From: a virus
IMG/VR virus record: IMGVR_UViG_3300014059_000004
Length of the DNA stretch: 64,000 nucleotides
Strand: one strand, 5' to 3'
Shown here: one piece after another, positions 6,030 through 38,009 of the stretch
Position numbering within the stretch: the stretch's first letter is position 1
Layout of the letters: each line of letters starts with the position of its first letter
Notes under the pieces: generated by a model
Told to the model about the DNA's origin: nothing
What the model saw: only the letters and a program-made list of their open reading frames with translations
The model's database searches: none
Position numbers and translations under genes: made by a program

Positions 6030-7254
6030 ACCTGCCAAGGTTGTTGCGGGTGAAGAACCTGCAAAGAAGAAAGCTGCAAACAGCGACGTTGACGATCTTA
6101 CGACTGAGATCATCAAGTCCATCAACAAAGAGTTCGGTCAACGTGTAGCGTACAACCTATCAGTAGACGAAGCGCCCACCAACGTGAAGCGTTGGTTGGA
6201 CACTGGTTCTATTCAGCTGAATTACGCTATCAGAAATGCTGCTGGAGGTGGTTATCCTGAAGGTCGAGTAATCGAGATTTCTGGACCACCGTCGATAGGT
6301 AAATCACACCTAGCGTACCACGCTGCTGCCATCGTCCAAGGGATGGGTGGGCTGGTCGTTTACATTGACACTGAGAATGCAACGCCAGTTGAGAAGCTTA
6401 AGAACGTTGGCATCAACGTTGCAAAGAGGTTCGTGTACTGCGATGCACATTGCACTGAAGAAGTATTTTCGATCATCGAATCTACTATCTTGAAGGCAAA
6501 GCAAGTCATGGACAAGAACGTTCCAATTCTTGTCATATGGGACTCAGTGGCAGCAACATCACCGAAGGCAGAACTAGACGGTGATTACGATCAAAACACA
6601 GTTGGTTTGCAAGCCAGAGTCATCAGCAAAGGCATGAGAAAGATCACTGGTGTGATCGGTCAGAATAACGTGACCCTGCTATGCCTCAACCAACTTCGAA
6701 CCGCTATCGGTGTAATGCACGGAGATCCAGACATCACGCCGGGCGGAAAATCGATTCCTTACCACGCAACGCTCAGAATCAGGCTTTCTTCTGGAACGCA
6801 AGTTAAAGATAGCAGCGGAAATGTCATTGGCATCCATGTCATCATGACGACGAAGAAGAACAAAGTCGCACCTCCTTTTAGGAAGTACGAATTTGACGTC
6901 ATCTTTGGCAGGGGAATTTCTGAGCACACTTACATCTTTGACGAACTTCGATCACACTGTGAAAAGAACGCTGTGACGATCGATCACAAGGATAGCAAGG
7001 GAAACGTTGAAAAGCTTCAGATCACCATTGAAGGTACACAAGCCTGGAAGACGCTGAAAGTTTTCAGCACCGTGACTGGAGAAGTTCTCATCGAGAAGAA
7101 GTTCCAAAAGAACAATTTTGATGAGATAATGGCAGATCCAGTGTATAAGCCATTCATTGACAAAGCCATAGAAGAGACGTACACTGTTCACGGTGGTGAT
7201 CCAGATTCGTCCGGTGAATCACCTTCGGAAGAAGAGGTCCTCGATGAAAGTTGA
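6022..7254 (+). CDS. uvsX: UvsX/RecA-family recombinase
   Basis: Walker A 'GPPSIGKSH'. RecA-fold core 'LVIWDSVAAT' and 'LLCLNQLR'. Overall length and architecture of UvsX. Confidence 0.75.
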   Translation: MAKPAKVVAGEEPAKKKAANSDVDDLTTEIIKSINKEFGQRVAYNLSVDEAPTNVKRWLDTGSIQLNYAIRNAAGGGYPEGRVIEISGPPSIGKSHLAYHAAAIVQGMGGLVVYIDTENATPVEKLKNVGINVAKRFVYCDAHCTEEVFSIIESTILKAKQVMDKNVPILVIWDSVAATSPKAELDGDYDQNTVGLQARVISKGMRKITGVIGQNNVTLLCLNQLRTAIGVMHGDPDITPGGKSIPYHATLRIRLSSGTQVKDSSGNVIGIHVIMTTKKNKVAPPFRKYEFDVIFGRGISEHTYIFDELRSHCEKNAVTIDHKDSKGNVEKLQITIEGTQAWKTLKVFSTVTGEVLIEKKFQKNNFDEIMADPVYKPFIDKAIEETYTVHGGDPDSSGESPSEEEVLDES

Positions 7255-7765
7255 AGTTCTCTACGATGGTCCGGCTGCTCCGGAGTACAAGACGCCTGGA
7301 GCAGCTGGGTGCGATCTGTACGCTGACGAGCACCAGATCGTCCTAGCAGGAAAGACAACGATCATCTCTACGGGACTTCGGCTTGCGATCCCAGAGGGAT
7401 ACGAAGGTCAAGTCAGGTCAAGATCAGGTCTTGCAACGAAAGGCGTGTTCGTTCTGAACTCTCCTGGTTGCATTGATTGTTTTTCGGGTGATTCGAAGAT
7501 TAGTACTCTTAATGGAAAAATGAGCATACATGATCTTCGAATCAATGATCATATTCATTCATTCAATGAATCAACGCATGAAATAGAAAGTGATATTGTC
7601 ACTGCCATTGTTGATGTGGGCGTAAGAGATGTTATCATTTTTCGCCTAGATGATAATACTACAATGTCTTTGACACCTGGAACGCTTGTATATACTAGCG
7701 CCGGCTTGAAGAGAGCTGATCAATTGACGTCATCTGATGAAATACTGGTTGACCATGATAGTTAG
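7244..7765 (+). CDS. dut: dUTPase N-terminal extein fused to a split-intein N-fragment (IntN, nt 7478-7762)
   Basis: dUTPase motifs 'AAGCDLYA' and 'IPEGYEGQVRSRSGLA'. Motif 3 'GCID' is then interrupted by intein block A 'CFSGDSKISTL'. The ORF ends at a TAG stop. The ATG overlaps the uvsX stop. Confidence 0.7.
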   Translation: MKVEVLYDGPAAPEYKTPGAAGCDLYADEHQIVLAGKTTIISTGLRLAIPEGYEGQVRSRSGLATKGVFVLNSPGCIDCFSGDSKISTLNGKMSIHDLRINDHIHSFNESTHEIESDIVTAIVDVGVRDVIIFRLDDNTTMSLTPGTLVYTSAGLKRADQLTSSDEILVDHDS

Positions 7766-8791
7766 TTATCATGGTCAAATGTTTGATATGCAACGTTGAA
7801 AAACCCTATTCTATCGTTGAACATCTACGTTGTAAGCACAAATTGTCAGTTGAAGCTTATCGTAAACAATTTGCCAACGCAGAAGTGAAATCTGCGTTGG
7901 CAATTGAAGCCATTTCTAAGCAACATAAGCTTGTTTGGCAAGATGAATCATACAAGCAAAAGATGCGTGCGTCTCGACAACGCACGCATCGTACAGATGA
8001 ATTTCGTAAAAAACAATCTGATATCATTAAAAGTACATACGCCCATGGGCATAGAACTTGGAATGATGGTCTGACAAAAGATTCGGATGAAAGACTGTCT
8101 TTGATTGGAAAAAAGAATTCAGAACATTTGACAGGCAGAACAAAAGATACACATGATTATCTTAAAGGAAAAAGTGTTTTCATGAAGAAATTTCATGAGG
8201 ATAATCCCGGTGTCTTTGTTCATAATAGAATTAATTGGTCAGAAGAACGAATAAAAGAATGGAAGGAAAAAATAAGTTCATCAGTTTGTGAAGCTTACCA
8301 TGATGGCAGATGTGGCAGTTCATATCGATATATCAAAGGTTGGTTCGAAACGAAAGATTCTAAAAGAGAACATTATGATTCATCATGGGAACTTTCTTTG
8401 ATGGAATTCTTGGAATCATTGAATGTTACGTGGACAAAAGCACATCGAATTACGATTGATTATCAATTTAATGGTAATAGAAGATACATTCCTGATTTTT
8501 TGATATCTTGGCGTGGTAAAAATTTGCTGCTTGAATTGAAGGGTTATGTTTCATCACAGATTGAACTTGATGAAAAAACTCAAGCAGCTAAAATTTGGTC
8601 AGAGAAACAAAACATGTGTTTTTCACTGTGTCATAGCGTAAACGAAGCAAAAGATGTCATTTGTAAATTTATGACGGAGGCAAATGAAACTAGCAAAAAT
8701 TGTTAATATTGAGCGTTCTACTGATCGTTGTTATGATTTGACCGTTGAAAACAATCATAATTTTTTCTGTAATGATGTTCTGATTCATAAC
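7478..8791 (+). mobile_element. fractured-gene element: split intein (IntN/IntC) with an interposed homing-endonuclease gene inserted in dut motif 3
   Basis: Intein block A sits after dut 'GCID'. IntC ends 'HN' followed by 'C-DYRG'. Joining the exteins restores canonical 'GxIDxDYRG'. Confidence 0.65.
7771..8706 (+). CDS. free-standing homing endonuclease between split-intein halves (Zn-finger N-terminus, PD-(D/E)xK Vsr-like C-terminus)
   Basis: 'CLICNV...HLRCKH' zinc finger. C-terminal '[18 protein letters not shown]' PD-(D/E)xK signature. Different reading frame from both dut halves. Confidence 0.5.
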
Positions 8792-9079
8792 TGTGATTAC
8801 AGAGGCGTTGTGAAAGTCATATTGCACAACGTAGGGTCATCGACATTTACTGTCAACAAAGGAGATAGGATAGCCCAGCTTGTAATTACGCCGATTATTC
8901 GAGCGTCATTCTCGCACTCTCGTGAGCTGCCAGAAACCGCTCGTGGAGCCGGTGGGTTTGGTTCAACTGGTACGTTAACTGATCTGTACTTGGGTCTTTG
9001 CGTTGATTACAGTTCAACATCTCTACACAAGGTGTTAAATGGACGAAAAATCAACGCAAAGACCCATTTTGATATATGA
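8684..9079 (+). CDS. dut: split-intein C-fragment (IntC, 36 aa) fused to dUTPase C-terminal extein
   Basis: '[36 protein letters not shown]' closely resembles DnaE-type IntC (cf. '...VYDIGVERDHNF...ASN'). It is followed by +1 Cys and dUTPase motif 3 'DYRGVVKV' and motif 4/5 'VITPI...[10 protein letters not shown]'. Confidence 0.7.
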
Positions 9080-10022
9080 CGCAATGAACAGCTTCGTGCG
9101 TGCATATGCAGCGTTTCCCGCAATGAACGTCAATGGTGAAGCTATGGGAGGCTGCGTTGGATTCTTGAAGACGCTTCGCAAGCTTGTTAACGAATACTCA
9201 CCATCTGCTGTGTACATCGCTTGGGAAGGTGGTGGATCGCAGAGAAGAAGAGCTCTGTTCTCAGAATACAAGATGAATCGACGACCAGAGAAGTTGAATC
9301 GATTCTATGAAGATGAAATACCAGATTCTGAAGAGAATCGTCAGCATCAACTGATAGTGCTGCTTAACTTGCTGAAGCACGTGCCAGTTTGTCAACTTTA
9401 TGTCTCTGATTGCGAAGGCGATGATCTTGTAGCTTACCTTGCACGGCAGAAATTTAAGAACGTTGACAAGATCATCGCTTCGTCTGACAAGGATATGTAC
9501 CAGCTCCTTGACGAGCAGACGAAGATCTACAATTTTCACAAGAAGATCATTGTGACAGGTGATGACATCTTGAATGAGTACAAGATCAAGCCGGGAAACT
9601 TTGGTCTAGCGAAAGCGTTGTGCGGTGATCCGTCTGACAACATCCCTGGTTTGAAGGGATTTGGGTTCAAGACAGCGTCTCGCGTTCTTCCGTTCTTGCA
9701 GCTTCAAGATGACATTCTTGTCAGCGATGTGATCGATTACTGCAATTCACACTATGACGAGTCAAAGTTGTACCAACGTGTTGTCGAAAATCAGGATCTT
9801 TTGAAGAGAAATTGGCGCCTCGTTCATCTAGACGGCAGCATGCTGTCCGCTGCTCAGGCTTCCAAAGTAGATCAATTGATCAGTACATACGTCCCACGTA
9901 GTGATAGGATCAGCTTTACTCGAGGGCTTATGAAGGAAGGCATCAATGATTTTGATGTTGCTGATTTCTTCATGACCTTCAACTGCATCGAGAACGTGGA
10001 AAATAGGACTAAAGAAAAATGA
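9039..10022 (+). CDS. 5'-3' exonuclease / RNase H (FEN family, T4 rnh-like)
   Basis: N-terminal '[14 protein letters not shown]' and '[10 protein letters not shown]...[14 protein letters not shown]', then '[11 protein letters not shown]'. The acidic clusters are typical of the FEN/PIN nuclease fold. A helix-hairpin-helix region '[18 protein letters not shown]' follows. Confidence 0.7.
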
Positions 10023-10807
10023 ACGATGACATCAAGCCGACAACGCAAGCTTCATTCGCACAGTATGGAAAGTCCTTCCAAGAAAAGCTGTGCCAAGCGC
10101 TGCTCGTTGACAAGCAGTTTGCAGAGCAGATGCTGGAGGTGTTTAACGTAACGTACCTAGAACCAAAGTACTTGGTGTTCCTTGCTGAACGTTATTTTTC
10201 GTACGCTCAGAAGTACAAGGTGTTTCCAACCATGCAGCTGCTCATCACCATCATCAGGGATGAGCTGAAGATTGGCACTGACGTTGTCATCAGAGATCAG
10301 ATAGTAGATTACTTGCAACGCATGCGTTCTAATCCTGACGTTGGAGATCTTCAGTACGTCAAGGAAAAGGCGCTCGATTTCTGCAGGAAGCAAGCTCTGC
10401 GCAGCGCGCTTGAAGAAGCAGTTGATCAGATCCAGGCTGAGAAGTACGAATCGATCGTTGAGGGTATCAAGAAGGCTGTGATGGTTGGAACTGCTCCGCA
10501 GTTGGGTCATGATTTCTTTGCTGATTATGAGAGTCGCTTCACTAAGTTGTCAAGGAATGCAATCGCCACAGGTCTTCCAGAGCTAGACAAGAAAGATATC
10601 TTGAATGGCGGCTTGGGGTCCGGCGAGCTAGGTTGCGTTGTTGGTGCGACTGGAACAGGAAAGTGTGTTCATCGTAATACTTACATTCAGGTAAAATATA
10701 CTGGGGTGAGAATCGATGGAAAACTATACAAGCCTTGGGATCGAATTGCAACAAAACGCGGAATCATCTTTGCTAGAGATGTCATCGAATCAGACGAGCT
10801 TGAGTGA
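10019..10807 (+). CDS. replicative helicase (DnaB/gp41-like) N-terminal part ending in Walker A, fused to a short intein N-fragment (nt 10664-10804)
   Basis: Walker A 'GATGTGK' is immediately followed by 'CVHRNTYIQV...' (intein block A). A stop follows after 47 intein residues. Confidence 0.55.
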   Translation: MNDDIKPTTQASFAQYGKSFQEKLCQALLVDKQFAEQMLEVFNVTYLEPKYLVFLAERYFSYAQKYKVFPTMQLLITIIRDELKIGTDVVIRDQIVDYLQRMRSNPDVGDLQYVKEKALDFCRKQALRSALEEAVDQIQAEKYESIVEGIKKAVMVGTAPQLGHDFFADYESRFTKLSRNAIATGLPELDKKDILNGGLGSGELGCVVGATGTGKCVHRNTYIQVKYTGVRIDGKLYKPWDRIATKRGIIFARDVIESDELE

Positions 10808-12318
10808 AAAATTCAAGTGTCAACATTGTTATCAACAATACAACAACCAGTCTGGTTTGATTACGCATATTCGACGCAAACATTCAACAACATTCACAGA
10901 TTACAAGTTGAAATTTGCGCATCTTTACAAAGTTGAAAAAAGAGAGAAAAAACTTAGTCTAAATGAACTAGCTAGACGTAAACGTGATGAAAAAGCTATT
11001 GATGATGGACTTAAAGTTTTGAAGTGCGAAATTTGCAATTATGAATCTTACTATTCTTTGATATCGCACATCGTAAGAAAACACGGTGTTGACATGAAGG
11101 AATATCGATCAAAGTATCCCTCAACTGTCGTGCAGCAAGTTACATCAGACATTAGGGAGAAAAATAAGAAGAATGCAACATTGCATCTTTCAGATCCGAT
11201 CAAGAAAGCAAACTTTCTAAAACGAAGATCTTTTCCCTCTGAGATGAAACATTGGATCAATAAGGGATTTTCATCAGATGAAGCAAAGAAAAAAGTTGCT
11301 GAATTTCAACAAAAGATTGCGCTTAAAGGCAATAATGAAAAAACGAAGGCAAAGCAGTCAATTAGAAATTCTGGTCAAAATAATCCAATGTCATTGACGT
11401 CAATTTCGAAACGCATGGGTGTTTCGAAGAATGAAGCAAGCAAATTGACGCCGTGTTATGGAAGATCAGGGTTTAAACACCCGATGTTTGGAAAAAAACA
11501 CAGCGTTGAAGCTTTGAACAAAATTGGTCGGCACATTAATCATACTGGTCGTTCGAAAATTGAACATGAAATGTCTGATTTGATCATTGCATTGTACGGT
11601 GGTCTAAAGAATGTTGGAGTCAACGGTTGGTGTTGTGATTACGTTAATCATAATCACCAAATCATAGTTGAATTTTTTGGTGATTATTGGCATCACAACC
11701 CAGAAAAATATGATAGAAATTTTGTCAACAACTTTACTAAACGTTCATCTGAAGAAGTTTGGTCACGTGATGCACGAAAATTGAATGAACTTAGAGAGAG
11801 TGGTTATAACGTTGTTGTGATCTGGGAATCTGATTGGCGAAACAAAAAAGAAGTCTGTTTGAACAGGATAAAAGATGCTTTCAATAGAACATTGTGAAGT
11901 TGTTGAAGTTGTTAAAATTGGTGATCTGTTTGATGATATTGGATTTGATGATAAATCTACTGTTGATGACTCTGGTGATTCATTCATTCCAAATGAATGG
12001 TCGATAGAAGTTAGATCACTTGACACTTTTTATCCTATAGATGGTTTTCGTTGGACAAAACCTGAACAGCAAGTGAAGTTGACATATGGCAAAGAATCTT
12101 CTTTGCAATGCTCACCAGAACACATTGTTTTGAAGTATTCTTCTACAGAAACTCAATGGACAAAAGTCAATGATCTATCGCCGGGTGATGACATTGTCAC
12201 TGTTAATGGCATTTGTACGATTGATTCGATTGATAATCTCGAGGAAATTGATCGTCTTTGCGATTTTCAAGTATCAATTGCGCACTCTTATTATGCTGAC
12301 GGTGTGTTGTCACATAAC
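10664..12318 (+). mobile_element. fractured-gene element: atypically split intein (47-aa N-fragment) plus homing-endonuclease gene inside the helicase P-loop
   Basis: The three pieces are in three different frames. The extein junction reconstitutes 'GTGK-S'. Confidence 0.5.
10716..11897 (+). CDS. free-standing homing endonuclease (C2H2 zinc fingers plus Vsr-like PD-(D/E)xK nuclease) between intein fragments
   Basis: 'CQHCYQQY...HIRRKH' and 'CEICNYES...HIVRKH' C2H2 fingers. C-terminal 'IIVEFFGDYWHHNP...VVVIWESDW' Vsr-like motif. Confidence 0.55.
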   Translation: MENYTSLGIELQQNAESSLLEMSSNQTSLSEKFKCQHCYQQYNNQSGLITHIRRKHSTTFTDYKLKFAHLYKVEKREKKLSLNELARRKRDEKAIDDGLKVLKCEICNYESYYSLISHIVRKHGVDMKEYRSKYPSTVVQQVTSDIREKNKKNATLHLSDPIKKANFLKRRSFPSEMKHWINKGFSSDEAKKKVAEFQQKIALKGNNEKTKAKQSIRNSGQNNPMSLTSISKRMGVSKNEASKLTPCYGRSGFKHPMFGKKHSVEALNKIGRHINHTGRSKIEHEMSDLIIALYGGLKNVGVNGWCCDYVNHNHQIIVEFFGDYWHHNPEKYDRNFVNNFTKRSSEEVWSRDARKLNELRESGYNVVVIWESDWRNKKEVCLNRIKDAFNRTL

Positions 12319-13116
12319 TCTCATTTCTTGACGTTCTTGGGTGCAATGGCGCTGAGGAACAACGTTGATGTTCTTCACTACACGTTCGAGCTATCAGAGA
12401 CTCAAGTTGGTATCAGGTACGATTCTAACTTGTGTGACATTGATTCGAATGCTGTCATTGACAGCAAGGATCGTATTCTTACTAAGTACGCAGAGCAAAA
12501 GCTGGGACGCTTGATCATCAAGTACTTTCCGACGAACACGGCTAGCATCTACACGCTTCGAAGTCACATCGAGCGCCTCGGAACGAAGGGTTTCAGGCCA
12601 GGATTGATCATCATCGACTATGCTGACATCATGAGATCAACTCGTCAGTTCGATTCTTTGAGACACGAGCTTAAGCTCGTTTACGAAGAACTAAGAGGAA
12701 TGGCTGGCGAGCTAGGAATCCCAGTGTGGACAGCGAGCCAGAGCAACAAAGAGGGAGCGACAAGCGAGATCATCGACATGGGAAACATGTCTGAAGCTTA
12801 CGGCAAGGCGATGATCGCTGACGTGATCGTCAGCATCTCTAGGCGCGCTCACGAGAAGTCAACGGGTCAAGGTCGATTGTACGTTGCAAAGAATCGTGCA
12901 GGGCGCGATGGTCTTGTTTACCCGTTGCACATTGACACCTCAAAGAGCAACTTTGAGATCTTGGGTGGACCGGGTTCTTTGGACGTCGCCATGAAGGAGA
13001 ACGAATCTGACATTAAGAAAGTTCTTCGTTCAAAGTGGAACGAGATGAGAAATGATCCAATCATCGGCGAAAATCTAAAAAGAGGAAGCGATTCTAGCGA
13101 TGACACGGGTTCTTGA
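11875..13116 (+). CDS. intein C-piece (148 aa, contains block B and terminal 'SHN') fused to helicase C-terminal RecA-like domain
   Basis: 'LTYGKESSLQCSPEHIVL' (block B-like)...'YYADGVLSHN|S', then helicase motifs 'LIIIDYADIM' and 'GIPVWTASQSNKEG'. Confidence 0.55.
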   Translation: MLSIEHCEVVEVVKIGDLFDDIGFDDKSTVDDSGDSFIPNEWSIEVRSLDTFYPIDGFRWTKPEQQVKLTYGKESSLQCSPEHIVLKYSSTETQWTKVNDLSPGDDIVTVNGICTIDSIDNLEEIDRLCDFQVSIAHSYYADGVLSHNSHFLTFLGAMALRNNVDVLHYTFELSETQVGIRYDSNLCDIDSNAVIDSKDRILTKYAEQKLGRLIIKYFPTNTASIYTLRSHIERLGTKGFRPGLIIIDYADIMRSTRQFDSLRHELKLVYEELRGMAGELGIPVWTASQSNKEGATSEIIDMGNMSEAYGKAMIADVIVSISRRAHEKSTGQGRLYVAKNRAGRDGLVYPLHIDTSKSNFEILGGPGSLDVAMKENESDIKKVLRSKWNEMRNDPIIGENLKRGSDSSDDTGS

Positions 13117-13176: not shown

Positions 13177-16100
13177 ATGAAGACATTTACGTACCAAGAA
13201 GCTCGTGATGCATCGGTTGACTATTTTTCTGGTGACACTCTAGCTGCTGATGTTTTTGTGTCCAAATATGCGTTGCGTGATTCAAATGATCAAGTTCTAG
13301 AGAGCACACCAGAAGCCATGCATCGTCGCCTGGCGAAGGAGTTCGCTAGGATAGAGTTGAACTACAAAAACTCTATTTCGTTCGAAGAAATCATGGAGTA
13401 TTTCAGCTCTTGGAAGATCGTGCCTCAAGGATCGCCGATGTCTGCGATTGGAAACACGAAGCAGATCCAGTCTCTGTCAAATTGCTTTGTCATTGAATCG
13501 CCGTACGATTCTTACGGCGGAATCATGAAGACCGACCAAGAGCAAGCTCAGATCATGAAGCGCCGCGGTGGTGTTGGATTCGACATCTCGTCAATCAGAC
13601 CAAAGGGATTGGTCACAACTAACGCTGCTCGTACGACCGATGGCATCGGTGTTTTCATGGAGCGCTTCAGCAACACTTGCAGGGAAGTCGCGCAAGGCGG
13701 TCGCCGTGGTGCTTTGATGATGACAATCTCTGTTCATCACCCAGAGATTCGCACGTTCATCAACATCAAGAAGAACGTTGAAAAAGTTACAGGCGCAAAC
13801 ATCTCGATCAGGTTGACTGATGAGTTCATGCGATCAGTGAAGGCTAGCGAGAAGTTCCAGCTAAGGTTCCCAGTTGAAGCAAATGCACAGCATACGATCA
13901 AAGAAGATGTCGACGCTGGTGAACTGTGGAATGAGATCATCGAGGCTGCTCATGCATCAGCTGAACCCGGTTTGCTATTTTGGGACAACGTTGTCAACAA
14001 CGGCCCAGCAGATGCATATCCCGGTTTCAAGTCTATCTCTACGAATCCTTGCTCTGAGATTGCTCTTTGCGCTTACGATTCGTGCAGATTGCTGCTTCTT
14101 AACGTTTCAAAGTTCGTAGAGAATCCTTTCACTGACAGAGCAAACTTCAACATCAAAGAGTTCAAGAGAGCTGCGTACGTTGCTCAACGCTTGATGGACG
14201 ACTTGGTTGATCTTGAGCTCGAAGCCGTCGATAGGATCATCGACAAGATCAACTCAGATCCAGAACCAGACGACGTAAAGAAGAACGAGCTAGATCTTTG
14301 GTTGAAGATCAGGGAAAAAGGTGCCTCGGGCCGTCGCACTGGTTTGGGAATCACTGGTCTTGGTGATGCCATTGCGTACGTTGGGTTGAAGTACGGATCA
14401 AGGGAATCTATCGATTTCACGGAAGATCTGTATAGAATGTTGGCTCTTTCTGCGTACCGTTCGTCAGTTGACATGGCGGCAGAACGTGGAGCATTTCCTG
14501 CGTTTTCTCACAACGTTGAAGCTGGTCATCCGTTCATTGAAAAGATCTTGGCACATGATGATGAGCTAAGGGCTGCATACAAGGTTCACGGTCGTCGTAA
14601 CATTGCCTTGACAACAACTGCACCCGCTGGATCAGTTTCAATCCTGACTCAAACAACGTCTGGTTGCGAACCTGTTTTTGCAGTTAGCTACAAGCGCAAG
14701 AAGAAGATCAATTCGAACGACGTCACGACCACAGCCAACTTTGTTGATGATCTTGGAGATCGTTGGCAAGAGTATACTGTCTACCATCATGGATTGAAGA
14801 TGTGGATGGATGTGACTGGAAAGACAGAGGCTGATATCGATGAATCGCCTTACAAGGGTTCTTCTAGTTCTGAGATCGATTGGCATGCTCGTGTTGACCT
14901 TCAAGCCGCAGCCCAAAGATGGATCTGCCATGCAATTTCCAGCACTGTCAACTTGCCATCAGATACGTCAGTTGAGACAGTTAAAAACATCTACATGCGA
15001 GGTTGGGAATCTGGGTGCAAGGGAATCACAGTGTATCGTGATGGTTGCAGAGCAGGCGTTCTATCGACAGAAGAGAAAAAGCCAAGTATTCAAGGAGCGT
15101 CAACCGATGGCTTGAAAGCCCTTCTTGACATTGTCACTAAGAACGTTAGCAGCATTCCATCAGCTGATTTGTACAAAAAATTGATTGAAGAAGAGCTCAC
15201 GAGGAGAGAGCCGACTCAACCAGAAAAGGTCGTCGAAGTTCATGCTCCGAAGCGTCCAAAAGAGCTAGAGTGTGACATCCATCGAGTCAACATCAAAGGC
15301 GAACAGTATCTTGTCTTCGTCGGATTGCTGAACGGCGTTCCATACGAAGTCTTTGCCGGTCTGTCAGAACACGTTGAAGTGCCAAAGAAAGTTAAGAAGG
15401 GAATCTTGATCAAGAATGGCAAGAAAGACGGCGTTGCAACGTACAATCTAAAGATTCCGGTGGGAGATGATGATTTTGTGACGTTCAAAGACGTTGTTAA
15501 CTTGTTTGACAACCCAACTTACGGTTCGTTCACCAGAACGTTGTCTCTAACGTTGAGGCATGGCATCCCGCTTCAGTACATCGTCGAGCAGCTTCGCAAA
15601 GACAAGCACAGCGACATGATGTCATTTTCAACTGTCATTGCTAGAGTCTTGAGCAAGGGTTACATCGTCGACGGAACGAAAGCAACGCAAGAAAAGCAGT
15701 GCTCAAGTTGCGGTTCTGATCAGCTAGCGTACATGGAAGGTTGCCAGACGTGCATGAACTGCGGAAGTAGCAAGTGTTCCTTATACTTAACTCCAAGACG
15801 AAAGGTTGATGACGTGAAAATCAAGATCACACCGCAGATGCTGAGGCAGCTTGTTAATGAAGAAGTTCTGAACGTGAAGCGCAAGGGAACTTTGAAGGAA
15901 GCCTTTGGACCATACGATGCTACTGGCGAGTATGATGACAAGGAATATGGCATGCAGCCGTGGAACTTTGAAGAGTCACACAGGGAATTGTTTGCGCAAG
16001 CGCTTGAACCGGTTATCAATGAATTCATGGAGTCTTTGGCTGAGATCGCTGAAAGAGCTTCACCACCAGATGCTAACATGTCTGCGCAAGATATTGGTAG

Positions 16101-16557
16101 CGATGAATACAACAGTTTCGGTGAAGACCTCAAAGAAGATCTTTTGAAGGTCATTGCTCAACACATGAAGAATGCGTCTGAAAATTTTGGTCTTTTAGAG
16201 GTTAACGTTATGAAGATAAAGCTAAGTGATCTGCGAAAGATCATCAGAGAAGTTGCAGTTTCACCTGCTGTCTTCAAGAGCAGCCAACCTGCAAAAGATC
16301 CGATGGAGAAGAAGAACATTGTCAAAGCGGTCTCTGATTTGAAGACAGCGTTCGAATCAGCGCTTCTAAGCAACCTTGTTCTTGCGAACCCAGAGAAGTA
16401 CGATGAATCCTCGAGAGAATTTGATGATCAGATGTACGAATCTCTTAAGACAACAGCGGCCTCAGCATCTGAACAAGTAGCATCAAAGATCAATGATGCA
16501 GTTCAGACTGCATGGGTTGCTGCACACAAAAACTCTAAGGTAAATCACTTAAAGTGA
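13177..16557 (+). CDS. nrdJ: ribonucleotide reductase, probably class II (NrdJ-like), with a roughly 250-aa non-RNR C-terminal extension
   Basis: Active-site 'NPCSEIAL'. C-terminal Zn-ribbon 'CSSCGSDQ...CQTCMNCGSSKC'. No nrdB partner. The extension carries two in-frame copies of the leader motif (see findings). Confidence 0.7.
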   Translation: MKTFTYQEARDASVDYFSGDTLAADVFVSKYALRDSNDQVLESTPEAMHRRLAKEFARIELNYKNSISFEEIMEYFSSWKIVPQGSPMSAIGNTKQIQSLSNCFVIESPYDSYGGIMKTDQEQAQIMKRRGGVGFDISSIRPKGLVTTNAARTTDGIGVFMERFSNTCREVAQGGRRGALMMTISVHHPEIRTFINIKKNVEKVTGANISIRLTDEFMRSVKASEKFQLRFPVEANAQHTIKEDVDAGELWNEIIEAAHASAEPGLLFWDNVVNNGPADAYPGFKSISTNPCSEIALCAYDSCRLLLLNVSKFVENPFTDRANFNIKEFKRAAYVAQRLMDDLVDLELEAVDRIIDKINSDPEPDDVKKNELDLWLKIREKGASGRRTGLGITGLGDAIAYVGLKYGSRESIDFTEDLYRMLALSAYRSSVDMAAERGAFPAFSHNVEAGHPFIEKILAHDDELRAAYKVHGRRNIALTTTAPAGSVSILTQTTSGCEPVFAVSYKRKKKINSNDVTTTANFVDDLGDRWQEYTVYHHGLKMWMDVTGKTEADIDESPYKGSSSSEIDWHARVDLQAAAQRWICHAISSTVNLPSDTSVETVKNIYMRGWESGCKGITVYRDGCRAGVLSTEEKKPSIQGASTDGLKALLDIVTKNVSSIPSADLYKKLIEEELTRREPTQPEKVVEVHAPKRPKELECDIHRVNIKGEQYLVFVGLLNGVPYEVFAGLSEHVEVPKKVKKGILIKNGKKDGVATYNLKIPVGDDDFVTFKDVVNLFDNPTYGSFTRTLSLTLRHGIPLQYIVEQLRKDKHSDMMSFSTVIARVLSKGYIVDGTKATQEKQCSSCGSDQLAYMEGCQTCMNCGSSKCSLYLTPRRKVDDVKIKITPQMLRQLVNEEVLNVKRKGTLKEAFGPYDATGEYDDKEYGMQPWNFEESHRELFAQALEPVINEFMESLAEIAERASPPDANMSAQDIGSDEYNSFGEDLKEDLLKVIAQHMKNASENFGLLEVNVMKIKLSDLRKIIREVAVSPAVFKSSQPAKDPMEKKNIVKAVSDLKTAFESALLSNLVLANPEKYDESSREFDDQMYESLKTTAASASEQVASKINDAVQTAWVAAHKNSKVNHLK

Positions 16558-17187: not shown

Positions 17188-17943
17188 ATGTGGTATGTTT
17201 ATGTGTACAAAGATCCGATCGATTCTGTTGTGTTTTATGTAGGAAAAGGTCAAGGAAATCGTCATCGTTCACATCTGTTTAGAGCTAAAACTTGGATTGA
17301 TAAAGGAAAGCCAAACAAATATGGGTCGATCAATATTCACTTGATGAGAAAAATATCACAACTATGGGATAACAAGCTTGAGCCAATCGTTGAAATTCTC
17401 GAAAATTATTCTGTTGAAGAAGATGCATATTCAAGAGAGATTGTTGAAATTAACAATCATAGATCCGAACGATTGTGCAATATTGCAAATGGTGGTGAAG
17501 GTCTAAGAGCATGCGCAAAAGAAACAATAGAGAAAATTAAAGCTAGTCGAAAAATTTGGCTTGAATCTGAAAAAGGACAGTCTTGGAGAAAGACTATGTC
17601 AGAAAGTAGAAAAGGTGTAGGAAATCCTGCTTATGGTAAAAAAGAAGCAGAAGATCATAAAATAGCTAGAATGAAGAATCTGCTTTCAAAAACTCGTTGG
17701 AATAAAGGTCTACGAGGTGATCCACGTAGCGCAGGTCATCCAAAAGGTGTTTCTACGTGGAATGCTAAAGTATGTCGAATTACTAATCAGATTACTGGTC
17801 AGATCGTAGAAGCTGAATCAAAGACAAAATTGGCAAAGAAACTTAAAGAACAACATGTTGAATTGTCAATGTCATCTTTGTCTCGAGCTCTAGCAACTGG
17901 TAAGGCTGTTAAAAATTGGAAAGTTGAATATGTCACCAAATGA
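17188..17943 (+). CDS. free-standing GIY-YIG homing endonuclease
   Basis: 'YVYVYKDPIDSVVFYVGKGQGNRHRSH' GIY-YIG motif. Basic C-terminal DNA-binding region. Confidence 0.6.
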   Translation: MWYVYVYKDPIDSVVFYVGKGQGNRHRSHLFRAKTWIDKGKPNKYGSINIHLMRKISQLWDNKLEPIVEILENYSVEEDAYSREIVEINNHRSERLCNIANGGEGLRACAKETIEKIKASRKIWLESEKGQSWRKTMSESRKGVGNPAYGKKEAEDHKIARMKNLLSKTRWNKGLRGDPRSAGHPKGVSTWNAKVCRITNQITGQIVEAESKTKLAKKLKEQHVELSMSSLSRALATGKAVKNWKVEYVTK

Positions 17944-20634: not shown

Positions 20635-21312
20635 ATGGGAAATAGATCTGATCAAGTTAAAAAGTTGTGGCAAACACCAGAATTTCGTGAAAAAATTATC
20701 GCAGCATCTAAAGACGGAAAAGCGTCGATTGAATCAAAACTTAAGCGTTCTAAAAGCTCAAGTAAATTGTGGTCTGATCCGGATTATTGTGAAAAACAAC
20801 GAATAAAACACAATGAACGAAAGAAAAGATTTGAACAAAAGCGAGTGACTATAACGTGTCTGACGTGTGGAAAAGAATGTAAGGTTAATGCAACAGTTGC
20901 AAAAACTAAGAAGTATTGTTCTCGTCGTTGCGTTATTAACAATCCGGCTTTTAACGTAAATCGAAATTTTTCCAGCAGCACGTGTGCTGCTTGTCAGGCA
21001 GAATTTAAACCAACAGGTGCTAAGCAGTTGTGCTGCACTACATGCGTTCCAAATAATTCAGCAAAATCACGTTGGAATTCGTATAAATTGACTCAACCAA
21101 TGTATGAAATGTTGCTAAGTCAACAGGGAAATTGTTGCGCACTGTGCGAAATTTCATTCAGTAATTTGAATTCAAAAGAAATTCATGTAGATCATGATCA
21201 TACTACAAATAAAATTCGTGGCATATTGTGTATGCGGTGCAATCGTAGCTTGGGTGTGGTAGAGTATATTCCACACTTTTTGGAAAAAGTAGCAACTTAT
21301 GTCAACATTTGA
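20635..21312 (+). CDS. free-standing HNH homing endonuclease
   Basis: 'HVDHDHTTNKIRGILCMRCNRSLG' HNH motif. Multiple CxxC Zn-ribbons. Confidence 0.6.
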   Translation: MGNRSDQVKKLWQTPEFREKIIAASKDGKASIESKLKRSKSSSKLWSDPDYCEKQRIKHNERKKRFEQKRVTITCLTCGKECKVNATVAKTKKYCSRRCVINNPAFNVNRNFSSSTCAACQAEFKPTGAKQLCCTTCVPNNSAKSRWNSYKLTQPMYEMLLSQQGNCCALCEISFSNLNSKEIHVDHDHTTNKIRGILCMRCNRSLGVVEYIPHFLEKVATYVNI

Positions 21313-28765: not shown

Positions 28766-29293
28766 ATGAACCGCGCTCTGTTGCTCAACGCAGACTATTC
28801 ACCGTTGCATTTCATTAGCGATGAACGTGCAATCGTTCTCGTGTACATCGGTCACGCCGAGGTTGTCGAGATGAACGGTGCGCCATCTGTGTGGTCGGGC
28901 GAGTACTTTGTTTCGCCTTCCACGAAGATTGCGGTGCCAGCAACCATCAGGCTGACTTCAAGAATCACCAAGAAGTGGAAGCAGCCTCGATTCAGGCGAA
29001 AGGTCTTGTTCAACCGCGACGGGTGGAAGTGTCAGTACTGCTCTGAAGAGCTTAATTGGTCTTCCGTCACGATGGACCACGTTCATCCAAGTTCACGAGG
29101 TGGAGACACTTCGTGGAAGAACTGCGTCGCGGCATGCAAGCCTTGCAATCGCAAGAAGGCGAACAGGACTCCTGATGAAGCGAACATGCGCCTCCTGAAG
29201 GTACCAGTGAACCCAACGCCGCTGCACTTTTGGGACATCTCTAAAACCTCCGCAGTCCACCCTGACTGGGAGGCATTTATCCCAAAGATGTAA
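28766..29293 (+). CDS. free-standing HNH endonuclease
   Basis: 'CQYCSEELNWSSVTMDHVHPSSRGGDTSWKNCVAACKPCNRKK' HNH/Zn motif. Confidence 0.6.
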   Translation: MNRALLLNADYSPLHFISDERAIVLVYIGHAEVVEMNGAPSVWSGEYFVSPSTKIAVPATIRLTSRITKKWKQPRFRRKVLFNRDGWKCQYCSEELNWSSVTMDHVHPSSRGGDTSWKNCVAACKPCNRKKANRTPDEANMRLLKVPVNPTPLHFWDISKTSAVHPDWEAFIPKM

Positions 29294-35164: not shown

Positions 35165-35926
35165 GTGAAGTATATTCATGGTGTTGAAGCCATGAAATCA
35201 AGAGAAAAAGTTTGTGACTGGTGCCATAATCCTTTTATTGATAAATCAAAAGGTAATTGGTGCCGCACATGTTCAAAAAACTGTCGTAATCAACTTCGAA
35301 CGCAAAATATGAGAAAAGGTGGCGCATTTGAATGGGATGAAGAACGACGTAAGAAAATTGGTGAAATAACCAAACAGAATCTACTTTCAGGAAAAGTAGA
35401 AAATCCGTGGTCTCGTAATGAGGTCAAAGAAAAAATTCGTCAGACGAACCTTAAAAAGTTTGGTGTTTCGAACTGGAGACAGACGAAAGAGGGTCGTGAA
35501 AGAACTATTACGTTCAATAAGAAACGAATTCGTTCGCGAGAAGAACGTCGAAAACATAGTGATAATGCTCGAAAACAAATGAAAGGTGGTCTCAAATCAC
35601 GAGGAAAGGCCGGGAAGCGAGATGATCTTCCTGGATTTTATCGCAGTCCATGGGAGGCAAATTACGCACGAATTCTTATCCACCAGGGAAAATCTTGGCT
35701 ATATGAACCGAAAACGTTCGAGCTCGCAAGTGGGATTTCTTACACGCCAGATTTCTATGTTGATGGTTGTTTCATTGAAATCAAAGGCTGGATGGATGAT
35801 CGGTCGAAACGTCAACTCGACGAATTTACAATTGAGTATCCAAACGAGAGGTTGCAAATTGTTGGTCCGAAGGAATATTATAGCCTTCGACAACAATACG
35901 CGTCATTGATTAAGGAATGGGAATGA
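35165..35926 (+). CDS. free-standing homing endonuclease (Zn-finger N-terminus, PD-(D/E)xK C-terminus) inserted at the dnaE 5' end
   Basis: 'CDWCHNPF...CRTCSKNC'. Repeated basic modules. 'PDFYVDGCFIEIKG'. Confidence 0.5.
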   Translation: MKYIHGVEAMKSREKVCDWCHNPFIDKSKGNWCRTCSKNCRNQLRTQNMRKGGAFEWDEERRKKIGEITKQNLLSGKVENPWSRNEVKEKIRQTNLKKFGVSNWRQTKEGRERTITFNKKRIRSREERRKHSDNARKQMKGGLKSRGKAGKRDDLPGFYRSPWEANYARILIHQGKSWLYEPKTFELASGISYTPDFYVDGCFIEIKGWMDDRSKRQLDEFTIEYPNERLQIVGPKEYYSLRQQYASLIKEWE

Positions 35927-36924
35927 AAATTAACGATTCAAACAACAGAAAGGAGGTATCCCTAGAAAACTCTGTGCGCACTCCGAAGCGATTTGTTGGT
36001 TTGCATAATCACACAGGGTTTTCGTAGGGGATTTAATCACCCTTTGACGGCCTCGGATACCCGAACGAACATTTCGATTTTTGTCGTGAGAATGGTCTTG
36101 ATGCTCACGCAATTACTGAGCACGGTAACATGAACAGTTACGCTCATGCTCAACTCGCAGTTGAAGATTGGAATAAAGCAAACCCAAAACTTCCTTTCAA
36201 GTACATTCCGGGTTGTGAAATGTACTTTCACCCAAGCTTGAAGCAGTGGGAAGTTGACAAGCTTCGTGCTGAAGAAGCCCTGGTCGATAAGAAAGCAGCA
36301 GCGAAGCTCCTGAAGGAGCAGGAAAAGCTGCAGACAAAGATCATTGCTGTCGTCGATGAAGCGGATGAAACCGAAGACATCGAGATGACCAATGCTCTGA
36401 CAGTTGAAAATGAAGACGAGTCAAAGTCAACGAAGCACTTCAATCCCGTCAACCGTCGTCATCACCTTGTTGTTCTGCCAAAGAACCAGCAGGGCTTGCT
36501 GTCCATTTTCTCTGCGTGCTCGAAAGCGTACATGCAGGGTTTTTACAGATTCCCTCGCATCGACTTGGAGATGCTGAAGGAAGCAGGAAAAGATCGTAAC
36601 ATCGTTGTCACTTCTGCATGCATTCATCCAGATTCAATTGTGATCACCAATTGTGGTTCAATGAAGATTGTTAATCTAGTTGAACATGTAAAAAATGGCA
36701 CTGAAATTTCGGTGTTGTCATATGATCATGACACAAACCAACTTGTTTTTAAGAAAGTTACTTGGGCTGATAAAACAAGAGAACAAGCAAAAATTGTTCG
36801 AATTAAGCTTAAAAATGGTGCAACATTGCGGGTAACGCCTGATCACAAAGTCTATACTAAACGTGGTTGGGTAGAAGCACAAGAACTTCTGAAAACAGAT
36901 CATATACTGTCAATCCACCAATAG
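35923..36924 (+). CDS. dnaE: DnaE (Pol III alpha) N-terminal PHP-domain segment plus split-intein IntN (36619-36921); reading frame interrupted by in-frame TAG (36025-27) and TAA (36034-36) 15 nt apart; conventional ORF resumes at 36130
   Basis: 'RFVGLHNHTGFS'-[tag ggg att taa tca]-'PFDGLGYPNEHFDFCRENGLDAHAITEHGNM...HLVVLPKNQQGLLSIF...IVVTSA|CIHPDSIV' aligns with the DnaE PHP N-terminus. All parts are in one frame. Confidence 0.45.
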
Positions 36925-38009
36925 TTATTGGTGGACAACTATGAGAAAATTTGATTCTAAAAAGAAAGCACTAGCTCGTCAAGAATTTCTTGACTCTCTA
37001 ACTCATGTAGGTCTGACGACGGTTGAATTGAAGCGCCTGGCATCAGACCTACATTATAGTTTGTCTATGATTTATGATCTAATTGTGAGAGATCACAATG
37101 ATATTGTTACACGTTTTCGTTTTTCAAAACGATCAATTGTAAATCTGTTTCATAAACTAGGCATAGTTCATAACAATAAACTTTACTTGAGATTGCCTCA
37201 AGAAGTTAAGTTGCAGTTCAAATATCCTAAGGGAACTTCTCTTGAAGAGATAAAAAAGATCTGTTCACAACAATCTTCAAAAGGTGCTAAGACTACTCAT
37301 CGTATTAGAAAGGCATGGGATGCATACACGCCCAAAAATAATACTGAATATTATCTCAATAAAGGATATTCTCTTGACGAAGCAAATGTTAAATCGTCAG
37401 CCTTTCGAAAAAGTAAGTCTCCATTCTCAAGATCATTTTCGAACTATCAACAGCTTGCTGCTGATGACGTTCTAGAACTAATTCGTGAACTCTCAAGAAA
37501 TAGAGGGCTTAAAGGGCTTGTTAGTATGCGTGCTCGCAATTCGAAACTCGAATTGCGAGTTGTATCTGAATTGCTAAACAAAGATATTCATTGTGAAACA
37601 CAGAAAATTTTGGGCAAATTTGCATATGATGTTTTTGTACCAAGATTCAATCTGATCATTGAAGTAAATGGAACGTACTGGCACGCAGATCCACGCGTTT
37701 ATAACGCTGATGATCTAATTCAATTTCCGTACGGGCAAGTTAAGGCAAGTGAAAAATGGTCAAAAGATGAGATAAAGTTGGCTTATGCCAGATCAATTGG
37801 CTATAATGTTTGTGTGTTGTGGGAAGCGGACTTGAAAAAAGAAGGTTACCTTGACGAATTCATCAAATCAATCAATGACAGCTATGCAGATGACAACTGA
37901 ATTCGTTGAAATTGACAGCATTTCCATTGACGAAGAAACACCTGACGTATATGACATAACAGTTGAAGATACACATTGTTTTTTTGCTGATGGTTCGCTA
38001 GTCCATAAT
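36619..38009 (+). mobile_element. fractured-gene element in dnaE: split intein plus interposed homing-endonuclease gene
   Basis: The extein junction restores DnaE 'TSA-C-IGG' ('S[AG]C' motif). The three ORFs are in three frames. Confidence 0.6.
36941..37900 (+). CDS. free-standing homing endonuclease (Vsr-like PD-(D/E)xK) between dnaE split-intein halves
   Basis: 'IIEVNGTYWHADP...VCVLWEADL' Vsr-like motif. Confidence 0.5.
   Translation: MRKFDSKKKALARQEFLDSLTHVGLTTVELKRLASDLHYSLSMIYDLIVRDHNDIVTRFRFSKRSIVNLFHKLGIVHNNKLYLRLPQEVKLQFKYPKGTSLEEIKKICSQQSSKGAKTTHRIRKAWDAYTPKNNTEYYLNKGYSLDEANVKSSAFRKSKSPFSRSFSNYQQLAADDVLELIRELSRNRGLKGLVSMRARNSKLELRVVSELLNKDIHCETQKILGKFAYDVFVPRFNLIIEVNGTYWHADPRVYNADDLIQFPYGQVKASEKWSKDEIKLAYARSIGYNVCVLWEADLKKEGYLDEFIKSINDSYADDN

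Follow-up and report, generated by a model that had tools for sequence, protein, structure and literature searches.

Fractured genes, in which the two halves of a split intein lie around a free-standing endonuclease gene, were described by Dassa et al. (2009) at the gp41-1, gp41-8, NrdJ-1, IMPDH-1, NrdA-2, DnaE, ligase and terminase loci (PMC2677866). The same disposition is found in a large genome, that of Pseudomonas jumbo phage MIJ3, where the PolB gene is fractured (PMC6892783). The histidine of block B is the most conserved single residue of inteins and is essential in many of them, although a few natural inteins which do not have it still splice (PMC6333167).

The stretch analyzed here (the window) comprises 64,000 nt of IMG/VR record IMGVR_UViG_3300014059_000004, one strand read 5' to 3'. 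Its dut gene had been read in an earlier note as an N-extein with IntN, a free-standing endonuclease ORF and an IntC with the C-extein, and ORF calls, Pfam searches and PDB alignments agreed with this layout base for base. The N-ORF (7244-7765, + strand, from an ATG at 7244 to a TAG at 7763-7765) encodes 173 aa, of which 78 belong to dUTPase and 95 to IntN; the middle ORF (7771-8706, + strand) encodes the 311 aa endonuclease in a frame different from that of the other two; the C-ORF (8684-9079, + strand, ATG at 8684) encodes 131 aa, 36 of IntC and 95 of C-extein. We consider it quite probable that the segment 7478-8791 is a mobile fractured-gene cassette, made of a canonically split mini-intein (95 + 36 aa) around a free-standing homing endonuclease gene and located after the codon of the motif-3 Asp.

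The dut locus is a fractured gene of the type of Dassa et al., sharing with those genes the three ORFs in the same order on one strand, the phage origin, the break at a conserved active-site motif of an enzyme of DNA or nucleotide metabolism, a hairpin at the endonuclease start, and IntN and IntC of similar sizes; the overlap between endonuclease and IntC is 23 bp in dut and 6-69 bp in the described genes (PMC2677866). Differences are also evident: the spacer between IntN and the endonuclease is 5 nt compared with 27-51 nt, the endonucleases of that set are GIY-YIG or Vsr-like whereas that of dut combines a zinc finger with a TnsA-like PD-(D/E)xK domain, the T4/Aeh1 late-promoter motif TATAAATA present in 10 of their hairpins is absent from the dut locus, and the eight host enzymes described there do not include dUTPase (PMC2677866). 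Moreover, the dut intein differs from that set by having no block B His. No report of a dUTPase intein was found in the searchable literature; dut is a new host enzyme for split-intein fracture, broken directly after the motif-3 Asp, and dUTPase joins the enzymes known to be fractured in this way. MIJ3 PolB resembles it as a split intein around a free-standing endonuclease in a large genome, but has another host enzyme, an HNH nuclease and a Ser1 intein with a canonical block B His (TEDH) (PMC6892783). Given this phage, and given that the fractured-dut family is present on many contigs of 100-360 kb, the earlier statement that such an arrangement is rarely seen in a complete phage context was too strong.

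The N- and C-ORFs lie in one common frame, and the distance from the stop of the former to the start of the latter is 921 nt, a multiple of three, which favours considering the layout as an artefact or a misreading, either a misassembled continuous intein with a nested endonuclease or a group I/II intron that is spliced out of the transcript and leaves a continuous mini-intein to be translated. We regard this as extremely unlikely. The same stop and starts are found in at least 13 independent assemblies and in diverged lineages, non-coding sequence amounts to only 5 nt, between the IntN stop and the endonuclease start, and IntC is provided with a separate GGAGG and a conserved start Met. The shared frame carries several stops within 7766-8683, which excludes read-through or frameshift into a continuous intein. 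An Rfam search that included introns gave no match in 7000-9400 even at E<=1 and, at gathering thresholds, no hit anywhere in the window, and we reject such an intron in the middle segment. A sequencing error at the 7763 stop, on which the earlier note made the split depend, can be discarded as well: the identical endonuclease ORF is present in at least 13 contigs of independent runs, all of those shown having the 173-aa N-ORF and all except L059 a called C-ORF, so the stop is real. Diverged versions of the arrangement were found in at least nine further lineages. Among the homologues of the N-ORF or C-ORF there was no contiguous (unsplit) form of the intein, the longer C-ORF homologues having C-terminal extensions only.

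The N-extein (7244-7477, + strand, 78 aa) contains motif 1 (AGCDL), motif 2 (SRSG) and GCID, the first half of motif 3, its last residue being the motif-3 Asp. The C-extein (8792-9079, + strand) begins with the +1 Cys, followed by DYRG (the rest of motif 3), motif 4 (DRIAQL), motif 5 and a 36-aa tail which overlaps the next gene. Both outer ORFs matched the Pfam dUTPase profile, the N-ORF over positions 5-79 (E=1e-10) and the C-ORF over positions 67-129 (E=5.6e-17), and the joined exteins aligned as a dUTPase without gaps across the junction to PDB 3mbq (E=2e-37; 3mbq segment LNTPGTIDSDYRGEVKVLL) and also to 8y1q, with the five motifs of the homotrimeric dUTPases (PF00692) in order. This gap-free alignment to solved dUTPases confirms that the enzyme is split inside motif 3 (GCID / C-DYRG), as had been proposed. 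It could be argued that a selfish insertion has killed dut in this phage and left two non-functional halves, as a stop and a foreign ORF interrupt the gene and the 36-aa tail beyond motif 5 is unusual; we find this very improbable. All five motifs are intact, the dN/dS of the exteins against the diverged copy L056 is 0.01 or lower, at least 60 clusters of IntC plus dut-C ORFs keep the same start and motifs, and the tail is shared with the intact gene of a close relative (L007, see below).

The two intein halves were recognizable at the expected places. IntN (7478-7765, + strand) consists of 95 codons from Cys1 (CFSGDS...) followed by the TAG at 7763-7765, and IntC (8684-8791, + strand, 36 aa) contains blocks F and G, terminates in His-Asn and overlaps the endonuclease ORF by 23 nt. 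Hint and Hint_2 matched the tail of the N-ORF and Intein_splicing the head of the C-ORF (E=1.9e-6), matches that are below the Pfam gathering thresholds and are backed by PDB alignments. When fused, IntN and IntC matched the 137-aa Spl DnaX mini-intein, of the HINT fold, from one end to the other (E=1.6e-9), with residues 3-131 of the fusion aligned. IntN also aligned to Ssp DnaB and other mini-inteins, a Thr of the query facing their block B His, and IntC to the C-termini of the Spl DnaX, gp41-1 and DnaB inteins. The split falls between blocks B and F, the canonical site, where nested endonuclease domains normally sit. IntN is acidic (net charge -9) and the head of IntC basic, a segregation of charge that holds in all lineages.

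Cys1, the terminal HN and the +1 Cys, residues expected of a class 1 intein, are invariant across six lineages of 48-90% identity, as are the block F Asp and NNHNF. Block B of IntN reads T66-P-G-T69, with Thr at the usual His position, a feature that had escaped the earlier note; of the class 1 motif T-x-x-H the Thr is kept and the His is replaced by Thr or Ser in nine lineages (TPGT, TPNT, TENT and TPNS), while P0026 has a Lys there, so that none of the ten lineages with a block B reading has the His. The dN/dS values against L056 (0.10 for IntN and 0.03 for IntC) indicate purifying selection on both halves. On these comparisons we infer that the dut halves would undergo trans-splicing despite the absent block B His, and that dUTPase function would require it.

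The family-wide loss of this His could also be taken as a loss of the splicing chemistry, the intein halves persisting as a non-covalent docking module on which the dUTPase fragments assemble unspliced. There is a precedent for assembly in two pieces, since the mobE-fractured NrdA of phage Aeh1 is reported to do so without an intein (PMC3045599). Docking would need none of the invariant splicing residues, and for this reason docking alone is disfavoured: Cys1, the terminal His-Asn, the +1 Cys and the block F residues remain invariant down to ~48% identity, and IntC evolves with the dN/dS of 0.03 given above. Furthermore, an unspliced complex would wedge a 131-aa domain into the catalytic motif 3, directly behind its Asp, and a few natural inteins splice without the block B His (PMC6333167). 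Altogether we judge assembly by docking improbable and favour trans-splicing.

With regard to how an intein of this kind might work, the nearest comparison is with the orthologues of the Tko CDC21-1 intein, natural inteins also devoid of the block B His, which are contiguous, archaeal and located in CDC21/MCM, whereas that of dut is a naturally split phage intein (PMC6333167). Unlike them, the dut intein has Thr or Ser at the His position and Asp at -1. A bolder reading, which we hold only as a tentative and rather doubtful one, is that the dut element belongs to a family of naturally split inteins that has lost the block B His permanently, would activate the N-terminal scissile bond by another route and travels with an undescribed class of zinc-finger plus TnsA-like homing endonucleases dedicated to one site. 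Possible participants in this other route are the Thr/Ser pair of block B and the invariant -1 Asp, which would correspond to the catalytic aspartate in motif 3 of dUTPases; if this alternative activation were true, splicing could be coupled to the correct folding of the active-site hairpin of dUTPase. Independently of that reading, a compact split intein of 95 + 36 aa without the block B His could inform on the catalysis of the first splicing step, and could serve as an orthogonal protein-ligation tool.

The putative free-standing homing endonuclease gene (7771-8706, + strand, 311 aa) encodes a protein with a CxxC...H...H zinc finger at the N-terminus, a helical region in the middle and, at the C-terminus, a PD-(D/E)xK nuclease domain whose catalytic residues (E207, P241-D242, E255 and K257) are invariant in the family. 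The TnsA-like N-terminal domain PF08722 matched above its curated cut-off, with the catalytic E/D/ExK and the restriction-endonuclease fold present. As a sequence search against the PDB found nothing, structure prediction was needed, and the predicted fold matched those of TnsA, VRR-NUC, Bax1 and Hjc. The locus differs from Tn7, the source of TnsA, in that it lacks genes for transposase partners; neither the N-terminal zinc finger nor the helical region is related to TnsA, and homing to one site would be expected for the dut enzyme. The earlier note had anticipated a Vsr-like nuclease, an assignment that we do not retain: the protein has the canonical PD-(D/E)xK motif and not the E-D-x-H-D of I-Bth0305I and the Vsr-like (EDxHD) family, and shares no sequence similarity with their nuclease domains. 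Among homing endonucleases, I-Ssp6803I is a known member of the PD-(D/E)xK group. The combination of a zinc finger with a classical PD-(D/E)xK domain joins the GIY-YIG, Vsr-like and HNH enzymes located between split-intein halves (PMC2677866, PMC6892783).

Only 16 clusters of this endonuclease family were found among 5.8 billion sequences. The context was read in ten lineages, phages of unrelated gene neighbourhoods among them, and in each the gene lies between dut-N plus IntN and IntC plus dut-C, so that, by the genomic contexts available, the family appears strictly tied to the dut site. Its activity, and a target in intein-less dut, are predicted from these sequences.

A perfect 12-bp hairpin (7749-7778, + strand, with arms at 7749-7760 and 7767-7778 and a 6-nt loop) spans the border between IntN and the endonuclease, the loop holding the IntN stop TAG and the 3' arm the endonuclease ATG (7771). 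Its RNA fold has an energy of -21.8 kcal/mol (z=-2.9). The arms are kept in the L004 group and in L050, in the latter with a 16-nt loop, and no such hairpin exists in the two most distant lineages. Since both arms are coding sequence (DHD and MVK) and there is no covariation, their conservation could reflect protein constraint. The endonuclease start codon has no Shine-Dalgarno sequence, and the hairpin likely serves for translational control of the endonuclease. A Shine-Dalgarno GGAGG (8676-8680, + strand), located in the 3'-terminal part of the endonuclease ORF, lies 3 nt upstream of the IntC start, whose Met (MK..KI) is kept in every family member examined. Eleven sigma-70-like sites were found where 5.6 were expected, none of them compelling.

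Evidence on the mobility of the element comes from L007, a relative at 94% nucleotide identity and with the same gene order in which dut is uninterrupted and reads GCIDSDYRG (intact fragment GGCTGCATTGACTCAGATTACAGAGGC). The difference between both is of exactly 1314 bp, corresponding to the whole cassette (7478-8791, + strand) of IntN, endonuclease gene and IntC. Residues 1-78 of the N-extein are 99% identical to the intact L007 dut, and the exteins show only four substitutions in ~450 otherwise identical bases, none of them more than 12 nt away from the insertion point (from L007 to the window, GGC>GGT, GAC>GAT and TCA>TGT); the +1 position is Ser (TCA) in L007 and Cys (TGT) in the window. 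Eight independent contigs share the cassette at 99.6-100% identity, with 0-5 mismatches over its 1314 bp, whereas the upstream flanks of the same contigs differ by 4-7% (14-83 mismatches in ~0.3-1.2 kb aligned). The GC content is about 0.31-0.40 in the cassette versus 0.47-0.55 in the flanks, the profile falling from about 0.5 to about 0.33 at the cassette.

An empty allele in L007, occupied alleles in its relatives and an element more conserved than its flanks are what is expected of homing, and a near-identical cassette in backgrounds with such diverged upstream flanks points to recent homing, as far as sequence comparison can tell. The block of high identity extends over the C-extein, sequence beyond 9074 being densely diverged in the comparison of cassette contigs; as L007 shares that block without the cassette, ordinary recombination could explain part of the identity pattern. 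A frozen relic, with an endonuclease that has ceased to home, vertical inheritance of the element and dut kept functional by splicing, would agree with a family confined to one site in one gene and with an endonuclease start without Shine-Dalgarno sequence and buried in a hairpin. We believe this to be unlikely, and to a similar degree as docking, since presence and absence of the element are polymorphic between genomes of 94% identity, the cassette is far more uniform than the upstream flanks and far in GC from the host genome, the catalytic E/D/E/K are invariant and the dN/dS of the endonuclease against L056 is 0.20. Recent homing is the reading that we prefer. Occupied and empty alleles in near-identical genomes, together with the numerous cassette copies carried by diverged backgrounds, make homing, co-conversion and target specificity accessible from sequence.

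In the mechanism that we propose, a single mRNA would give three proteins, and the N-extein-IntN and IntC-C-extein products would meet via their intein halves, by the acidic IntN and the basic head of IntC. Trans-splicing would proceed through Cys1, the terminal His-Asn and the +1 Cys, yielding a normal dUTPase chain with Cys for Ser at a variable position of motif 3. In relatives that infect the same cell, the endonuclease would cut an intein-less dut in or close to the sequence coding for motif 3, and recombinational repair would then transfer to the cut allele the cassette together with a part of the downstream extein. Synthesis of the endonuclease would probably be low, with no Shine-Dalgarno sequence and the start codon buried in the 12-bp hairpin, and its initiation would rely on ribosomes terminating at the IntN ORF.

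In the IMG/VR pattern search the empty-site junction was found only in the contig of L007, and the occupied junction was not found. Among the deposited phage genomes of INPHARED there was no DNA match to the dut locus, no full-length homologue of the endonuclease and no intein-bearing dut; the closest RecA in this set is only ~39% identical, which indicates that the phage has no cultured relative in INPHARED.

Finally, three fractured loci had been announced in the window, and three are indeed present: besides dut, they are dnaB (10019-13116) and PolIII alpha (36130-41183). The endonucleases of these two loci look like Vsr-like enzymes by their conserved residues and mutual similarity; in Pfam, one of the two gave only a sub-threshold match and the other gave no match. 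The break in the dnaB intein lies near its N-terminus, at an atypical, non-canonical site.

The dut locus of the window is made up of three ORFs in one direction, as seen both in the ORF list and in the raw sequence. The N-ORF (7244-7765, + strand, 173 aa) starts in its homologues at ATG 7244, not at the upstream GTG 7193; the middle ORF (7771-8706, +, 311 aa) lies in a different frame, and the C-ORF (8684-9079, +, 131 aa) is again in the frame of the N-ORF. The first 79 positions of the Pfam dUTPase profile match the N-ORF and positions 67-129 the C-ORF, with Hint matching the tail of the former and Intein_splicing the head of the latter; PHROGs assignments agree with Pfam. Extein and intein borders were set by cutting the ORFs at CFSGDS and HN|CDYRG, which gives, all on the + strand, the dUTPase N-extein (7244-7477), the N-terminal intein half IntN (7478-7762), the C-terminal half IntC (8684-8791) and the dUTPase C-extein (8792-9079). 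Against solved dUTPases the joined exteins show no gap at the junction (3mbq, E=2e-37), with GCID-CDYRG opposite GTIDSDYRG, and the predicted spliced chain carries all five dUTPase motifs. Joined in turn, the intein halves match the 137-aa Spl DnaX mini-intein end to end (E=1.6e-9), and can also be aligned to the DnaB, NrdJ-1, gp41-1 and RecA inteins. The ORF list, raw sequence, Pfam, PHROGs and PDB alignments thus confirm the fractured dut described in the earlier note, coordinates included, as well as its claim that motif 3 is split, since GCID-CDYRG spans the junction; the interpretation given there is supported, with corrections.

dN/dS was computed against L056, a contig whose cassette is ~85% identical, with values of 0.011 for the N-extein, 0.10 for IntN, 0.20 for the endonuclease, 0.03 for IntC and about 0 for the C-extein. 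Six lineages at 48-90% identity share without exception Cys1, Phe2, both threonines of block B, Asp and NNHNF of block F, the terminal His-Asn and the +1 Cys. The intein halves show the charge pattern that natural split inteins are known for and that Dassa et al. (PMC2677866) stressed: in every lineage an acidic IntN, with a net charge of -9 to -12, is paired with an IntC that begins with 15 residues of basic character (+2 to +6). Selection, invariant residues and charges together argue that both the splicing of the dut intein and the endonuclease would be functional.

The block B His of reference inteins (TGNH, TANH) falls opposite Thr69 of IntN (T66-P-G-T69) in every PDB alignment. This position is Thr or Ser in all nine dut-intein lineages examined, block B reading TPGT in the window and contigs L004, L056 and L067, TPNT in L050, L052 and L068, TENT in L053 and TPNS in L069; the distant sequence P0026 has Lys. 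This His is the single most conserved intein residue, essential in many inteins and missing only in "a very small subset" (Tko CDC21-1 orthologues), which has a compensatory residue (Friedel et al., PMC6333167). Its absence would suit a reading in which the intein halves only dock and do not splice, a reading that fits poorly with the invariant nucleophiles and would leave a 131-aa domain lodged in motif 3, whose invariant Asp is the -1 residue. The conservation of T-x-x-T/S across the family under purifying selection rather suggests a working alternative, not decay.

At least 13 contigs, each from an independent run, encode an identical dut endonuclease protein; of eight such places, all had the 173-aa N-ORF called and seven the C-ORF (the exception being contig L059), and contig L063 does not differ from the window in the compared region (100% identity). 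The earlier note had left room for a continuous intein ORF, but the stop at 7763 is real, with the same layout in at least 13 independent contigs. Read-through or artefact as the source of the three-ORF layout was rejected on the ORF list and these contigs, as was an intron in the middle segment (no Rfam match, only 5 nt non-coding). Diverged versions of the layout occur in L004 and five sister contigs, in L050/L051, L052 and L053-L055, in L056/L057, and in L067, L068 and L069, several of them in unrelated gene neighbourhoods on contigs of 100-360 kb. Clustered at 90% identity, the ORFs of IntC plus dUTPase C-extein form a family of at least 60 clusters, every one beginning at the same methionine of IntC (MK..KI); no contiguous version of the intein was found among N-ORF or C-ORF homologues.

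The endonuclease start lies in a perfect 12-bp hairpin (arms 7749-7760 and 7767-7778), whose loop contains the stop codon of IntN and whose 3' arm contains the ATG of the endonuclease; stop and start are only 5 nt apart, and no Shine-Dalgarno sequence precedes the ATG. The L004 group and L050 conserve both arms, L050 with a loop of 16 nt, and L052 and L053 lack them. The ATG of IntC is preceded at a distance of 3 nt by GGAGG, and IntC shares 23 bp with the endonuclease ORF. Of the 16 endonuclease leaders of Dassa et al., 15 had a hairpin, and the overlaps they reported measured 6-69 bp (PMC2677866); the TATAAATA element of their hairpins is absent in the dut locus. We infer from these signals that endonuclease translation is probably low-level and termination-coupled.

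Contig L007 (IMGVR_UViG_3300033121_002020), with ~94% DNA identity to the window and the same gene order, has an uninterrupted dut reading GCIDSDYRG, and base-level comparison gives an exact 1314-bp insertion in the window, 7478-8791. The exteins differ by only four substitutions in ~450 otherwise identical bases (L007 to window: GGC>GGT, GAC>GAT, TCA(Ser)>TGT(Cys+1)), all within 12 nt of the insertion point, and every cassette-bearing contig has the GGT...GAT|...|TGT version. Compared with the window, eight independent contigs show 0-5 mismatches in the cassette and 1-5 in the C-extein (about 290 nt), whereas upstream (roughly 0.3-1.2 kb aligned) they show 14-83, about 4-7%, and beyond 9074 divergence is dense; the near-identical block, cassette plus C-extein, therefore runs from ~7463 to 9073. 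GC is ~0.33 across the cassette versus ~0.5 outside. Empty site, near-identical cassette and GC drop are together what one would expect if a homing element were sweeping through a population of diverged phages and co-converting mainly its downstream side. A frozen element that no longer homes fits poorly with an empty site and a near-identical cassette in diverged backgrounds, or with the dN/dS of the endonuclease.

The right edge of the block coincides with a hairpin of high stability (8991-9066; RNA fold -39.2 kcal/mol, z=-8.2), formed by a perfect 18-bp inverted repeat (8991-9008 and 9049-9066). The flap-endonuclease-like gene downstream has its start codon (9039) inside this hairpin, which is kept at 99-100% in all related contigs. 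The dut neighbourhood is a hotspot of insertions. Some close relatives (L059/L060) have a shortened upstream recA/uvsX and, ahead of it, an ORF that faintly matches MTES_1575 (Vsr-like), and L056, L064 and L065 carry a 324-aa reverse-strand ORF between dut and the flap-endonuclease gene.

The dut endonuclease has no sequence match in PDB, its Pfam match to TnsA-like_N is barely above threshold (27.4 vs 26.5 bits), and its family is small (16 clusters among 5.8 billion sequences). The family alignment displays an N-terminal zinc finger (C4/C7/H18/H23), a helical middle with conserved WNxGLTK and LTGRTK motifs, and a third region with invariant E207 ... P241-D242 ... E255-x-K257. The AF2 model has a mean pLDDT of 75.5, with 10-residue block means of 86-95 over residues 190-300; Foldseek placed TnsA on top, then Bax1, VRR-NUC, Hjc and RecU. 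Fold-comparison values were 9.1 for TnsA (1t0f), 8.3 for VRR-NUC, 8.0 for Bax1, 7.7 for I-Bth0305I, 7.1 for Hjc and 6.6 for Vsr, by which the protein is predicted to be a classical PD-(D/E)xK nuclease. The Vsr-like endonuclease that had been proposed for dut did not hold, the PD-(D/E)xK residues being invariant and TnsA the best fold match; with the Vsr-like (EDxHD) endonucleases of published fractured genes it has only the fold superfamily in common. Ten lineages were read in context, and in each of them it occupies the same site in dut, flanked by the same intein halves; the middle ORFs of L067-L069 match its family profile (E=1e-65 to 1e-93). The zinc finger is the sole part shared with the endonuclease of the dnaB locus (E=5e-5), which suggests that nuclease types have exchanged DNA-binding modules. 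Elsewhere in the window, a single 439-aa ORF (50185-51504) combines a Cys-rich N-terminus, a TnsA-like PD-(D/E)xK domain paralogous to the dut endonuclease (phmmer E=8e-7) and a complete dCMP deaminase domain, with no separate start codon for the full deaminase N-terminus; it may be a homing-endonuclease/deaminase fusion.

In architecture the dut locus matches the fractured genes described by Dassa et al. 2009, whose hosts were gp41, IMPDH, DnaE, NrdA, NrdJ, ligase and terminase and whose endonucleases were GIY-YIG or Vsr-like (PMC2677866); a cultured example is PolB of jumbo phage MIJ3, with an HNH endonuclease (PMC6892783). dUTPase is absent as an intein host from Dassa et al., the MIJ3 paper, the text of the Novikova et al. 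survey and the openly searchable literature, subscription journals and InBase being outside this scope. The source phage has no close cultured relative in INPHARED. The locus is a known kind of arrangement that varies in two respects, its type of nuclease and a block B that lacks the His, and does not overturn current understanding. As a natural system the family is unusually clean, combining an empty site and a defined target with numerous near-identical copies, and it also provides a split intein of potential use whose catalytic block is non-canonical.

That the window holds three fractured loci is borne out, dut being accompanied by dnaB (10019-13116) and PolIII alpha (36130-41183). The former, a DnaB-type helicase gene common to the window and L007, consists of an N-ORF (10019-10807), an endonuclease ORF (10716-11897) and a C-ORF (11875-13116), its intein lying within the Walker A loop (GTGK|C...HN|SHF); the predicted spliced product is gap-free against the intact DnaB of L004 (70% identity). 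The split site is atypical, leaving 47 aa in the N piece and 148 aa, with blocks B, F and G, in the C piece; in PDB the intein is best matched by VidaL (6vgv), itself atypically split. In the PolIII alpha (DnaE-type) gene the break follows the PHP domain; the gene comprises an N-ORF (36130-36924), an endonuclease ORF (36941-37900) and a C-ORF (37851-41183), and its split intein has the canonical TPDH, NrdJ-1 being closest (8ubs, E=8e-15). A 9-bp hairpin (36914-36935) has the IntN stop in its loop, as at dut, and the endonuclease GGTGG in its 3' arm.

Both endonucleases look Vsr-like in sequence (EFFGDYWH..., EVNGTYWH...) to judge by their conserved residues and mutual similarity; that of dnaB, with two C2H2 fingers and NUMOD3 besides this domain, has only a sub-threshold Pfam nuclease match, and that of PolIII alpha has none in Pfam. 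Directly upstream of the latter gene, a 253-aa Cys-rich ORF with repeat motifs (35165-35926) and a PD-(D/E)xK-like C-terminus ("...YTPDF...IEIKGW") has no Pfam match and is a probable further free-standing endonuclease. This genome segment is unusually rich in homing-type nucleases, free-standing genes of GIY-YIG (LEM-3-like; 17188-17943), Endonuclease VII (20635-21312) and HNH (28766-29293) type standing among nucleotide-metabolism genes. A ribonucleotide reductase-like ORF of 1126 aa (13177-16557) has a long C-terminal extension after a Cys-rich motif.
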